A stretch of DNA of 64,000 nt from Giesbergeria sp. (GCA_017985015.1 JAGNYI010000005.1:21041-85040), one strand, 5' to 3'. Shown: positions 15,067 to 59,006, counted from the first letter of the stretch. Translations and numbers: made by a program. Notes: generated from the letters alone by a model not told the origin.

Positions 15067-18000
15067 ATGACCCAGGGACAGATCCGCATCCGCGGCGCGC
15101 GCCAGCACAACCTCCGGAATCTGGACCTGGACATCAACACTGGCGAGCTCACCGTCGTCACCGGCCCCAGCGGCTCGGGCAAATCCAGCCTCGTGTTCGA
15201 CACGCTCTATGCCGAAGGGCAGCGGCGCTATGTGGAAACCTTCAGCGCCTACGCGCGCCAGTTTCTCGACCGGATGGACAAACCGGCGGTGGACAACTTG
15301 GAGGGCGTGCCCCCCGCAATCGCCATCGACCAGACCAACCCGGTGCGCAGCTCGCGCTCGACCGTGGGCACGATGACCGAGCTGAACGACCACCTCAAAC
15401 TGTTGTTCGCCCGCGCTGGCCAGTTGTTTGACCGCGAGACGGCGCAGCCTGTGCGCCACGATTCGCCTGAAACCATCTATGCCGAACTGCTGGCGCGAAG
15501 CGGTGGGACCGAGCCAGCGCCGGGCCGCCCCAAGCTGGCGAGCGCCCCCTTGGGGGGCAGCGAGGACACGCCAGTGCCGAGTGTGGGGGCCACTGAGCCA
15601 GCGCCGGGCCGCCCCAAGCTGGCGAGCGCCCCCTTGGGGGGCAGCGAGGACACGCCAGTGCCGAGCGTGGGGGCCACCGAGCCAGCGCCGGGCCGCCCCA
15701 AGCTGGCGAGCGCCCCCTTGGGGGGCAGCGAGGACACGCCAGTGCCGAGCGTGGGGGCACTCGACCACCGCCTGGTGGTGACCTTTCCTGTCGAACTGCC
15801 CGCCAATACCAGCGCCGAGCAGGTCACCGAGTGGCTGTCGGCCAGCGGTTTCACCAAGATTCAGGCCGAGCGAGAAGCCGGGGGGGTCAAGCTTCTGGAC
15901 GTCGTGGCGGACCGCTTTCGCATGGCCAGTGTCGAGAAATCGCGTGCCATTGAGGCCATTGAAGTGGCGCTCAAGCGCAGTGGCCGAATGGCGGTCTACC
16001 GGCTGGTGGATAACGCCGAGGCCGAGATCTGGCAGTTCTCTACCGGGCTGCATTGCCCGGACAGCAACCTGCGCTACAGCGAACCGCTGCCGTCGATGTT
16101 CTCGTTCAACTCGCCGGCCGGTGCCTGTGAGACCTGCCGGGGCTTTGGGCGGGTGATTGGCGTGGACTACGGCCTGGTGATTCCCGACCCCAAGAAAACG
16201 CTGCGGGCTGGCGCCATCAAGACGCTGCAAACCCCCGCCTGGAAAGAAGCGCAGGACGACCTCATGCGCCATGCCGAGGCCGCCGGCATTCCACGTGACA
16301 CCGCCTGGAACCGCCTGACTCCCGAGCAGCAGCAGTGGGTGATTGGCGGTTCGCCCAACTGGAAGGGCAAGTGGAACCAGCAGTGGTACGGCATTGCGCG
16401 CTTCTTTGAATACCTGGAGAGCAAGGCCTACAAGATGCATATCCGTGTGCTGCTGTCCAAGTACCGCAGCTACACGCAGTGCCCGACCTGCGCCGGAGCG
16501 CGGCTCAAAACCGAGAGCCTGCTCTGGCGCATCGGCAGCAAGGCGGATGCCGACGCGGTGCTGCCGCCTGCGCAGCGTTTCATGCCGCAAGGCGTGGCCT
16601 GGAGCCGTGAGCAGTTGGAGGCGCTGCCGGGGCTGTGCCTGCACGATTTGATGCTGCTGCCGCTCAGCCGGGTGCGCAGCTTCTTTGAGCGGCTGTCGAA
16701 AAATACTACGAAGTTGATAGCTGATGGCGCATATGGGATAAGCGCTGGAGGCCAATCTGACCAAAAAATTGAGGCATCAGAGGCGCCTGCACCCTCCGCC
16801 AGCGCCGCACGTGAGAGCGGCGACGCCCAGGCGCTCAAGCTCTTGCACGAGGAAATCGGCACGCGCCTGAAGTACCTGGACGAAGTCGGCATCGGCTACC
16901 TCACGCTGGACCGGCAAAGCCGCACGCTCTCGGGCGGCGAGGTGCAGCGCATCAACCTGACCACGGCGCTGGGCACGTCGCTTGTCAACACGCTGTTCGT
17001 GTTGGACGAGCCCAGCATCGGCCTGCACCCGCGCGACATGCACCGCATCACCGAGGCCATGCTGCGCCTGCGCGATGCCGGCAACACGCTGGTGGTGGTG
17101 GAGCACGACCCGGCCGTCATGCTGGCCGCCGACCGCGTGCTCGACTTCGGCCCCGGCCCGGGCGAGCGCGGCGGGCAGATCGTGTTCGACGGCACGCCCG
17201 ACGAACTGCGCCGCGCCGACACCCTTACTGGCCAGTACCTGGGGGGGCGCAAGCACGTGGGCCTGCCTTTCGCCCGCAAGGTGACGGACGCCACGCCGCG
17301 CCTCGTCCTGGAGGGCGCGCGCGAGCACAACCTGAAGAACATCACGGTGGACTTCCCGCTGCAGCGCCTGGTGACCGTCACCGGCGTCAGCGGCTCGGGC
17401 AAATCCAGCCTGATTCAGGATGTGCTGGCGCCCGCCCTTATGCGCCACTTTGGCAAGGCGACAGAAACGCCGGGCGCCCACGACCGCCTGCTGGGCGCGG
17501 ACCACCTCTCGGACGTGGTGTTTGTCGACCAGTCGCCCATCGGCAAGACGGCGCGCTCCAACCCGGTCAGCTACGTCGGTGCCTGGGATTCCATCCGCGA
17601 ACTCTTCGCCGCCGCTCCGCTGTCGCGCGAGCGCGGTTACACCGCCAGCAAATTCAGCTTCAACAGCGGCGACGGACGCTGCCCGACCTGCGGCGGCTCG
17701 GGCTTCGAGCATGTGGAGATGCAGTTCCTCAGCGACGTGTATCTGCGCTGCCCCGACTGCGACGGCAAGCGCTACCGCCCGGAAATCCTCGAAGTCACCA
17801 TCACCCGCAAGGCCGTGGCGGCGCACGCCGAATCATCTCCTGATGTCTCGCTGTCGGTGGCGGACGTGCTTGCGCTCACGGTGAGCGAAGCGGTGGCACT
17901 CTTTGCCAATGACCGCGAAGTGCTGCGGGCGCTGGCGCCCATTGTCGAGGTGGGGCTGGAGTACGTGAAGCTGGGCCAGCCGGTGCCGACGCTCAGCGGC

Positions 18001-57575: not shown

Positions 57576-59006
57576 ATGAACCCCATTGACATCGTGATCA
57601 TGGCTGCCGGCAAGGGCACGCGCATGAAAAGCCGCCTTCCCAAGGTCCTGCAGCGCCTGGCAGGCCGCCCGCTGCTGCAGCATGTGCTGGGCCAGGCGAG
57701 CGCACTGGGTGCGCGCAGCGCCATCGTCGTCACCGGCCATGGTGCTATGGAAGTAGAAGCTGCTTGCGCAGGTGCGATAAGCGCTGGAGGCCAATTTGAC
57801 CTGAAATTCGTGCGCCAGGAGCCGCAGCTGGGCACCGGCCATGCCGTGCAGCAGGCGGCGCCGCTGTTGCAGGACGACGGCACCGTCGTCGTGCTCTCGG
57901 GCGACGTGCCGCTGACGCAGCCGGGCACCGTGCGCGCCCTGGTGCAGGCCAGCGCTGACGAAGCACTGGCGCTGCTCACCGTGCGTCTGCCCGACCCCAA
58001 GGGCTATGGCCGCATCGTGCGCGGTGCAGATGGATTGGTGCGCGGCATCGTCGAAGAAAAAGATGCGAGCGACGCCGAGCGCACCATTACCGAGGTCTAC
58101 AGCGGCATCCTCGCTGTGCCCGCGCGCCTGCTGCTGCAGTGGCTGCCGCGCCTGTCCAACCAGAACGCCCAGGGCGAGTACTACCTGACCGAGGTGGTGG
58201 CCATGGCTGTGGCGCAGGGCGTGCCGGTGACCACGCACACCATCGACGACGCGGTGCAGGTGGCAGGCGTCAACAGCCCGGCGCAACTGGCCGAGCTGGA
58301 GCGCGCCCACCAGAGCCGCGCCGCCATCCAACTGATGGAGCAGGGCGTGCGCCTGTCTGATCCTGCACGCTTTGACCTGCGCGACGACGCGCGCAGCGGC
58401 GCGCGCGCCGAACTGGTGTGCGCGCAGGATGTGGAAATCGACGTCGGCTGCCTCTTCACCGGCCGGGTCGAACTGGGCGAGGGCGTGCGCATCGGCGCCT
58501 ATTGCTGCATTGCCAATGCGTCGATTGCCGCCGCAGCCGTGATCCACCCGTTCACGCACATTGACGGCGAAGCGGCCGGTGTGCAGGTGGGCGAGGGCGC
58601 GTTGGTCGGCCCCTTTGCCCGGCTGCGCCCCGGTGCCCAGCTCGGGCGCGGGGTGCACATTGGCAATTTCGTCGAAGTGAAAAACAGCCAGTTGGCCGAC
58701 GGCGCCAAGGCCAACCACCTGGCCTATCTGGGCGACGCCACGGTGGGCGAGCGCGTGAACTACGGCGCCGGCAGCATCACCGCCAACTACGACGGGGCCA
58801 ACAAGCACCGCACGGTGATTGAGGCCGACGTGCACATCGGCAGCAACTGCGTGCTGGTGGCGCCGGTTACCGTGGGCGCGGGCGCCACGGTGGGTGGCGG
58901 CTCGACCATCAGCAAGGACGTACCCGCCGGGGCGCTGAGCGTGGCGCGCGGACGGCAAACCAACATCACCGGCTGGAAACGGCCGGCCAAGAAACCCGCG
59001 CCCTGA
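57576..59006 (+). CDS. glmU: bifunctional UDP-N-acetylglucosamine pyrophosphorylase / glucosamine-1-phosphate N-acetyltransferase, with an in-frame F1 insertion
   Basis: MAAGKGTRMKS, QLGTGHAV and the left-handed beta-helix hexapeptide C-terminal domain. Confidence 0.95.
   Translation: MNPIDIVIMAAGKGTRMKSRLPKVLQRLAGRPLLQHVLGQASALGARSAIVVTGHGAMEVEAACAGAISAGGQFDLKFVRQEPQLGTGHAVQQAAPLLQDDGTVVVLSGDVPLTQPGTVRALVQASADEALALLTVRLPDPKGYGRIVRGADGLVRGIVEEKDASDAERTITEVYSGILAVPARLLLQWLPRLSNQNAQGEYYLTEVVAMAVAQGVPVTTHTIDDAVQVAGVNSPAQLAELERAHQSRAAIQLMEQGVRLSDPARFDLRDDARSGARAELVCAQDVEIDVGCLFTGRVELGEGVRIGAYCCIANASIAAAAVIHPFTHIDGEAAGVQVGEGALVGPFARLRPGAQLGRGVHIGNFVEVKNSQLADGAKANHLAYLGDATVGERVNYGAGSITANYDGANKHRTVIEADVHIGSNCVLVAPVTVGAGATVGGGSTISKDVPAGALSVARGRQTNITGWKRPAKKPAP
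57743..57810 (+). repeat. F1 element copy J (forward, in-frame in glmU)
   Basis: GTGCTATGGAAGTAGAAGCTGCTTGCGCAGGTGCGATAAGCGCTGGAGGCCAATTTGACCTGAAATTC. Encodes AMEVEAACAGAISAGGQFDLKF. Confidence 0.85.

Follow-up and report, generated by a model that had tools for sequence, protein, structure and literature searches.

Rickettsia palindromic elements (RPEs) are dispersed palindromic repeats that lie between genes and, in frame, inside conserved genes of Rickettsia (Ogata et al. 2000, 2002, as summarised in PMC10969869). Intragenic ERIC elements, QMITE1 of Coxiella and the MITEs of Anabaena (miniature inverted-repeat transposable elements) are small mobile repeats with open frames that form in-frame fusions with their hosts (PMC10969869). 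BRE, a repeat of about 90 bp and 69% GC that often stands in variable tandem arrays, occurs in Polaromonas, Delftia, Acidovorax and Bordetella, mostly between genes, with some copies wholly within coding sequences (Hot et al. 2011, PMC3110155). Here we describe F1, a repeat found in a 64,000-nt stretch of DNA from Giesbergeria sp. (GCA_017985015.1 JAGNYI010000005.1:21041-85040; hereafter the window) and in related genomes. F1 is probably a dispersed, AT-rich, two-hairpin repeat whose old genic copies, among them those in a UvrA-like gene, tlyA and glmU, have been retained in a benign reading frame and a tolerant place.

Copies were found with a profile (nhmmer) built from matches to an 18-nt core, ATAAGCGCTGGAGGCCAA, which occurs eight times in the window at no more than three mismatches, against 0.01 occurrences expected from shuffled sequences. 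The profile search of the window revealed 13 copies, 12 of them on the + strand (Table 1), and the density of F1 in this genome is about one copy per 5 kb. The consensus, approximately ATGCTATTAAATTGATAGCTGCTAGCGCTTGCTGGATAAGCGCTGGAGGCCAATTTGACTTAAAA, is about 65 nt long with 42% GC in a genome of 65% GC, and contains two potential stems, GCTAT/ATAGC and AGCGCTT/AAGCGCT. A scan of one genome per species with an exact 24-base pattern located F1 in at least 118 loci of Acidovorax, Giesbergeria, Simplicispira, Ottowia, Comamonas, Alicycliphilus, Diaphorobacter, Polaromonas, Albidiferax and Paracidovorax, and the core is identical throughout these ten genera. F1 is specific to Comamonadaceae and close relatives. 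The TlyA of the window is 100% identical to a partial protein assigned to Giesbergeria. The 118 loci (numbered L001 onwards) and the window together gave the 197 F1 copies on which the counts of position and frame below are based. Across the whole window no F1 copy matched Rfam 15 at the gathering score, nothing was reported at E ≤ 1 on 27700-30300, a stretch with two F1 copies, and literature searches with taxa, the term MITE and literal sequence strings returned no description of F1.

An initial annotation, made by a model from the sequence alone, had placed five forward copies inside + strand open reading frames (ORFs; DUF1289, the UvrA-like gene twice, tlyA and glmU), all read in one element frame with a shared peptide. 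Translation confirmed both the placement and the frame: the five sense genic copies of the window are read as ..ATA GCT GCT..ATA AGC GCT GGA GGC CAA.., giving LIAAxAxGISAGGQFDLK, and the consensus has a single open sense frame, which gives DAIKLIAASACWISAGGQFDLKF. Over the whole sample, 11 of 11 independent sense genic sites use this frame. Copies inside intact ORFs were also found in L003, L004, L010, L039, L065, L081 and L113, with one host identified, PepN (L113), so that the RPE-like behaviour claimed by the annotation, in-frame copies in unrelated intact genes, is borne out. Its further claim that genic copies always occupy the one sense frame does not hold, since antisense in-frame copies exist: the copy in the HAD phosphatase gene is one, and 5 of 9 antisense genic copies are in the frame giving IGLQRLSxKRxQLS. 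The copy at 7278 lies outside the range that the annotation had given (16699-57810), and the HAD copy (38969-39042), the degenerate stretch (18399-18472) and the weak match in rsmJ (46067-46144) were absent from it.

The annotation had explained the frame by the survival of ORF-preserving insertions only, the other two forward frames being closed by stops. The results support this for the consensus and for the uniform frame of the 11 sense sites, but not as a sufficient cause. TAA is always present in the second forward frame, whereas the third (T AAG CGC TGG..), although it holds stops in the consensus, is open in 41% of individual copies; stop avoidance therefore explains the frame pattern only partly. 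The peptide of the first frame is rich in Ala, Gly and Ser and that of the third in Cys, Arg and Trp, and filtering on the peptide likely accounts for the remainder of the frame choice.

Comparison with orthologues indicates that the genic segments are acquired repeat DNA and not ancestral protein, because glmU, tlyA and UvrA sites 1 and 3 all have orthologues that lack them. All 120 of the closest GlmU homologues (≥80% identity) keep GHGAxEVEAAxAG-7 residues-FDLKFVRQ. The segment is decayed in the representative at 71% identity, and the seven residues are absent from the representative at 66% and beyond, as they are from solved GlmU structures (PDB alignment, window +7 aa). Nearly all of the 120 closest TlyA homologues carry DLIAxxxxxxSAxGQFDxKF; among 80 more distant metagenome loci, 72 of them classifiable, 41 were of a short type (16-25 residues, no F1) and 31 of a long type. 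The annotation had raised the prospect of the same peptide in lineages devoid of F1, and the opposite was found: further F1-like copies occurred on 6 of 31 loci of the long type and on 0 of 41 of the short type (P = 0.005), which implies that the genic segment of tlyA travels with the F1 family. Variant F1-like copies outside tlyA were seen in these distant lineages (tlyA loci L119-L198) in L120, L122, L136, L143, L153 and L186; the variants have another central stem, e.g. GCCCAT/ATGGGC with the core ACGrGGGCTGCAGGCC. In UvrA (120 orthologues, 1918-2094 aa), sites 1 and 3 are length-variable linkers in which orthologues at 75-79% identity hold either F1-derived peptides or unrelated short linkers. 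Presence and absence are thus seen at 75-79% identity for these two sites and across the family border for tlyA and glmU.

It is highly improbable that the shared peptide is ancestral or a chance resemblance, or that the hosts are pseudogenes or mis-called ORFs. Such a reading could draw on the DUF1289 ORF, which is perhaps too long, with a GTG just after the element, and on the weakness of the matches at 18399 and 46067. It is contradicted for glmU, tlyA and UvrA by the F1-less orthologues. The nucleotide matches of the genic copies (62-71 bits) are also on a par with those of intergenic copies, and in four orthologues the GC content at third codon positions is 0.25-0.46 in the F1 segment against 0.75-0.95 in the remaining gene. 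The host proteins are complete, match solved structures over their entire length and are conserved across hundreds of genomes; the genes are therefore not pseudogenes, a possibility that the annotation had itself raised.

The annotation had spoken of in-frame insertion as such; the nucleotide alignments of glmU and tlyA show replacement instead. Between the window and an F1-less glmU orthologue (P0362/L206), identity is about 85% in the flanks and only about 45% in the stretch that they enclose, and this stretch is in the window about 82% identical to the F1 consensus. In glmU, 66 nt of F1 stand in place of 45 nt of host DNA (net +21 nt). In tlyA, 65 nt of F1 stand against 38 nt in the F1-less loci L126, L134 and L138. 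With 38-45 nt of host DNA displaced, the net gain in these two genes is only 7-9 codons. PepN (L113) shows the same pattern, with a net gain of seven residues over the host VAANLATLSDG; for all three genes the outgroups are distant. In all three genes the displaced host residues partly resemble the F1 peptide (VEAA/LIAA, DLxF/DLKF and VAANLATLSDG/IAASAYQISAGG).

This resemblance keeps a recombination route alive. F1 might have entered genes, and copies might perhaps have kept their likeness, through short-patch homeologous recombination or template switching with ectopic copies, with no transposase-type insertion, a route that we regard as rather improbable as a full account. It fits the replacement of a host stretch of similar length in glmU, tlyA and pepN, whose ends overlie F1-like residues, and the absence of target duplication at glmU and tlyA; in one distant lineage, the tlyA copy of L122 moreover has lineage-specific bases in common with a second copy on its contig. 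Against this, the end similarity amounts to a few bases only, the left arms of the genic copies, non-palindromic and stable, bear no trace of later conversion, the UvrA linker sites look like plain length gains, and the comparison covers only three cases, two of them with distant outgroups.

The genic copies are ancient and orthologous across genera, and are not recent survivors. In the region compared with a relative whose UvrA is 94% identical (L205), all six copies, genic and intergenic, are orthologous, so that no presence/absence polymorphism was seen at this distance (6 of 6 common, one relative). The glmU and tlyA copies are common to several genera. Codons at conserved residues are identical in 81-88% of cases in the F1 segment and in 60-80% in the rest of the gene. 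In the D-L-I-A-A block of tlyA, Ile is encoded by ATA in 85% of cases against 5% elsewhere in the gene, and Ala by GCT in 66% against 9% (the window and 18 lineages with 59-71% identity to it). The left arm of the tlyA and glmU copies (GCTGCT-TGCGCA), which departs from the consensus, is likewise stable across lineages; this speaks against repeated overwriting by other copies and for vertical nucleotide conservation; gene conversion as the cause of the codon conservation is weakened by the same observation.

The main rival account of such conservation takes F1 for a motif that functions in DNA or RNA, for instance as the binding site of a conserved factor, needed at many places and selected inside genes too; the genic copies would then be sites under maintenance rather than tolerated junk. 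The rare AT-rich codons kept over 60-70% protein divergence, the arm TGCGCA held stable without repeated overwriting and the core identical in ten genera all fit this alternative. We nevertheless consider it unlikely, since Rfam and the other searches yielded no function, partner protein or RNA family and recognisable F1 has been lost at the genic sites of many orthologues.

The intergenic copies bear on the same question. By dicodon score about 22 of the 197 copies (~11%) are genic, and about 89% are intergenic. The flanking genes, relative to F1, are (-,-) in 51 cases, (+,+) in 44, convergent in 32 and divergent in 3, and a neighbouring stop codon lies from -10 to +20 nt of the F1 boundary, on either side, in about 60% of cases. 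Copies are thus close-packed against gene ends (window examples at 7278, 27789 and 34545), and the TGA or TAG of F1 itself is the terminal stop of many genes. At L199 7300-7376, a decayed orthologue of the copy at 59850, the HisKA gene stops on a TGA in the first hairpin loop. Since this gene and the one at 34545 stop on codons supplied by the element, F1 has reshaped C-termini. The persistence of orthologous intergenic copies across genera and the near absence of copies from divergent promoter regions would suit a functional motif; orthologous intergenic copies do, however, decay (L199), and there is no orientation rule with respect to transcription (44 vs 51). The link to GC skew is ambiguous as well. 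In 91 of 135 copies (91:44) F1 has its own strand as the locally G-rich one; the ratio is 36:7 for copies whose flanking genes lie on the opposite strand and 19:19 for those with co-oriented genes.

Three further readings of the intergenic copies were set aside. A replication-strand bias is not assignable, because the GC-skew association is confounded with gene strand (36:7 vs 19:19). The sigma-70-like arrangement TTGATA-N17-GATAAG could suggest a promoter, but divergent regions are avoided and orientation follows no rule relative to genes. Neither stem is followed by a T-run, which disposes of a terminator.

The genic copies also show signs of adjustment at the protein level. In the window, GCGCAGATGGG (..CADGIS..) replaces the palindromic GCGCTTnnnnG (..SAYLIS.. 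or ..SACWIS..) in genic copies. This variant was found in 5 of 22 genic copies and in 1 of 175 non-genic copies, the single case being in frame at the N-terminus of an ung-like ORF. That copy (L091 5606-5672, Simplicispira hankyongi) is a canonical-frame F1 that lies right upstream of the ung-like ORF and in frame with it. The annotation had noted that the left arm of the central palindrome is degraded in coding copies. This stands for the window, where the hairpin free energy of genic copies is -3.1 to -6.8 kcal/mol against a non-genic mean of -7.6 kcal/mol; in the wider sample the difference in the central hairpin is only marginal (-6.3 vs -7.6 kcal/mol, P = 0.046). RNAalifold returned no consensus structure from 172 aligned copies.

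The annotation had proposed asking whether the insertions in GlmU and UvrA fall in surface loops. In the AlphaFold model of TlyA (mean predicted local distance difference test score, pLDDT, 89.8), the F1 peptide forms a short helix (141-146) and a loop of low confidence (147-161, pLDDT 52-70) and runs into a strand (162-168). At UvrA site 3 the linker measures about 48 residues, where solved UvrA structures have about 15, and it is unaligned to them; the second half of the fused protein does align. In GlmU, F1 encodes a helix (58-66), a loop and a strand (75-80); the helix is alpha2 and the strand beta3 of the nucleotidyltransferase fold. The model of GlmU being weak (mean pLDDT 68.7), this assignment rests mainly on alignments to solved structures. 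A sequence search found no solved homologue of the HAD phosphatase.

Table 1. F1 copies and their hosts in the window, with F1 copies on a plasmid (last line)
Feature	Coordinates	Strand	Evidence and context
F1 in DUF1289 ORF	7278..7345	+	nhmmer 31 bits; ORF translation; orthologue L205 4919-5194 with PF06945 and the same copy
Fused UvrA2-like + UvrA gene	15151..21435	+	~2094 aa; within ORF 15058..21435; Pfam ABC_tran, UvrA_DNA-bind, UvrA_inter
F1 in UvrA site 1	16699..16772	+	In frame; nhmmer 66 bits; variable linker
Degenerate F1-like stretch, UvrA fusion joint	18399..18472	+	nhmmer 20.5 bits, E=1.8e-5; orthologous copy in L205
F1 in UvrA site 3	20128..20201	+	In frame; nhmmer 65 bits; linker between two ATPase modules
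F1, intergenic	27789..27862	+	Begins on TGA of RNase_T-domain gene; convergent genes; orthologous copy L205 22024-22083
F1, intergenic	30141..30211	+	Divergent DUF294/CBS gene and COX1; orthologous copy L205 24557-24608
F1 with perfect central palindrome	34545..34618	+	Element TAA (of TTAATAG) terminates ORF 33931..34563
F1 in HAD phosphatase gene (38463..39413, -)	38969..39042	+	Antisense, in frame; peptide RISDEIGLQRLSDKRRQLSKIYQQ; Pfam Hydrolase_3
F1 in tlyA (44072..44857)	44486..44559	+	In frame; nhmmer 70.8 bits; peptide LDASDLIAACADGISAEGQFDLKF
Weak F1-like stretch in rsmJ (45712..46605, -)	46067..46144	+	Antisense; nhmmer E=0.03; Pfam RsmJ
F1, intergenic	55942..56015	-	Sole minus-strand copy; convergent tyrS / LysR gene; orthologous copy L199 3351-3421
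F1 in glmU (57576..59006)	57738..57811	+	In frame; nhmmer 65.8 bits; peptide (HG)AMEVEAACAGAISAGGQFDLKF
F1, intergenic	59850..59923	+	Convergent HisKA and GGDEF genes
F1 on plasmid pG5A4Y217 (NZ_KJ541071.1, L203)	2988-3052 and 1795-1855		Cassettes between aadA5, blaOXA-2 and qacEdelta1

Three of the hosts in Table 1 deserve comment. The copy at 7278 covers the stop of ybaK and the start of DUF1289, which overlap in ATGA, and the first ~22 codons of ORF 7278..7553 are F1 in the canonical frame, with the peptide MNAIKTIAARARTLSAAGYFDHD. A GTG lies 27 codons downstream, right before the conserved PSPCVSVC, so the ORF may have been called too long and the GTG past the element may be the true start. 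The gene was recognised as DUF1289 via synteny with L205; a domain search of the UvrA region and of ORFs close to other copies found no DUF1289. The fused UvrA gene hosts three F1-derived segments, the second of which (18399) lies exactly where the UvrA2-like half meets the N-terminus of canonical UvrA (PDB UvrA junction mapping), in a linker conserved among UvrA orthologues. Its reading frame is the one normally closed by TGA, TAG and TAA, all three of them mutated here; weak as the match is, the stretch could be a former intergenic copy absorbed by gene fusion. The stretch in rsmJ is conserved in three genomes (also at L201 7001-7066 and L202 7010-7071) and may be a very old, decayed genic copy or a chance match. 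Elsewhere in the window, a SAH riboswitch (RF01057, 48.9 bits) was detected at 42296-42416, upstream of the S-adenosylhomocysteine hydrolase gene (42396..43919).

The account that we favour, a dispersed repeat retained where its peptide is benign, would run as follows. F1 would have spread in an ancestor of Comamonadaceae as a repeat like REP, MITE or RPE, and the survivors would be those that came to lie where they were harmless, in short 3' spacers, at the last codons of genes and, rarely, inside genes. A minority would have entered coding regions in common ancestors of genera or of the family. To persist there, a copy would have had to present a frame with a benign peptide (sense LIAAxAxGISAGGQFDLK or antisense IGLQRLSxKRxQLS) and to sit in a linker or loop (UvrA, TlyA) or stand in for the segment displaced (the helix-loop-strand of GlmU). 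Replacement is what the alignments display, about 65 nt of F1 for 38-45 nt of host DNA. As to the way of entry, insertion with later trimming of nearby loop codons comes first in our ranking; second comes short-patch recombination with an ectopic F1 copy, for which chance similarity at the ends would be the seed. After fixation, tuning at the protein level would have changed hydrophobic loop codons to ..CADGIS... A sequence-specific constraint, acting on F1 as DNA or RNA, is our unproven explanation for the constancy of much of its nucleotide sequence, rare AT-rich codons included, and any cellular function of F1 is likewise conjectural.

Several points weigh against this account. No terminal inverted repeats, target-site duplication or transposase was found in ~1.5 Mb of sampled DNA, and since none of these marks of mobility was found, transposition is assumed. 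Replacement over F1-like peptides in three genes fits recombination at least as well as insertion plus deletion. Hand-specified stems pair no oftener than shuffled columns and show no compensatory changes, the stems being kept by sequence alone, and conservation of synonymous sites over family-level divergence is unexpected of a passive fossil. The loci were moreover picked by an exact pattern, which biases the sample to well-kept copies, and gene calls in the loci outside the window relied on our own dicodon score, which is ~90% correct on 150-nt pieces.

F1 was also found outside Comamonadaceae. Two DUF1010 (PF06231) class 1 integron cassettes of the E. coli plasmid pG5A4Y217 carry full-length F1 (42 and 25 bits), and the same DUF1010/F1 match is present in Klebsiella, Enterobacter, Acinetobacter and Agrobacterium records and in other plasmids. 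The DUF1010 ORF reads F1 antisense (..LASSAYAASASSY..). The DUF1010 model has 66 residues and reaches into the cassette attC; F1 peptides alone gave no match to it. These results suggest that DUF1010 is at least partly a translated repeat and that the cassettes came from Comamonadaceae. In L036 (6722-6906, an Acidovorax metagenome-assembled genome), a stretch is 69.5% identical over 187 nt to the DUF1010 cassette, extending ~130 nt beyond F1; it could be a chromosomal relative of the cassette. A doubtful but wider proposal would combine several of these elements: F1 nucleotides would be selected inside genes as the recognition site of a DNA- or RNA-level process and gained by short-patch replacement wherever the protein absorbs the peptide, and the DUF1010 cassettes would then be traceable to Comamonadaceae. 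Uptake sequences, too, colonise coding regions, and a selected F1 would be their 65-nt analogue.

The significance of F1 lies in several directions. Translated in-frame palindromic repeats have been treated largely as a curiosity of Rickettsia; here they occur in a large free-living family and within the essential genes glmU, uvrA and tlyA. An AT-rich element in a genome of 65% GC is a natural experiment in which codons are easily traced over time. Two questions become testable, namely how repeat DNA enters a structured enzyme without breaking it, here by replacing a loop or a helix-loop-strand, and why synonymous sites in what is supposedly junk do not change over family-level divergence. In practice, F1 draws attention to a cause of false or extended ORF calls (DUF1289 at its N-terminus, genes that terminate in F1), and as a taxonomic marker it can point to where some class 1 integron cassettes came from.

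Compared with the known systems, F1 is a new RPE-like family that lacks the defining features of REP, MITE and attC. It differs from BRE, by description, in size, GC content and tandem habit, and an identity of the two was set aside on these grounds. The integron attC (RYYYAAC...GTTRRRY) is not F1, which lies ~90 nt upstream of a separate, typical attC (GTCTAAC...GTTGGGC) in the cassettes. ERIC, QMITE1 and the Anabaena MITEs are bounded by terminal inverted repeats and, in the cases studied, show target duplications. For F1 neither was found: the consensus ends are not complementary, the internal AAATTG/CAATTT pairs no better than shuffled columns, and no target-site duplication was seen in two comparisons of filled and empty sites (glmU and tlyA). 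Presence/absence polymorphism at orthologous sites, as in MITEs, does occur (UvrA sites 1 and 3, tlyA and glmU). With the repetitive extragenic palindromic sequences and their composites (REP, BIME, REPIN), F1 shares palindromy, a place at gene 3' ends and in convergent spacers, rarity in divergent promoters and hundreds of copies per genome. REP, however, is a GC-rich palindrome of 20-40 nt with a GTAG or CGTC head, whereas F1 has 42% GC, two stems and no such head, and mostly forms single copies, unlike REP doublets; inspection by eye, with no family search, of the ORFs flanked by 14 inverted F1 pairs less than 2.5 kb apart (0.96 Mb sampled) revealed no RAYT or other transposase. RPEs remain the closest parallel. 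F1 stands apart from them by description in size (~65 nt against 100-150 bp for families RPE-1 to RPE-10), in hosts (free-living Betaproteobacteria of 62-69% GC against reduced intracellular genomes) and in mode of acquisition, with only ~11% of sampled copies genic and the codons of glmU and tlyA replaced for a net 7-9 aa. As in RPEs, one frame yields a conserved peptide, the host proteins are functional, and the insertions are old and common to species.

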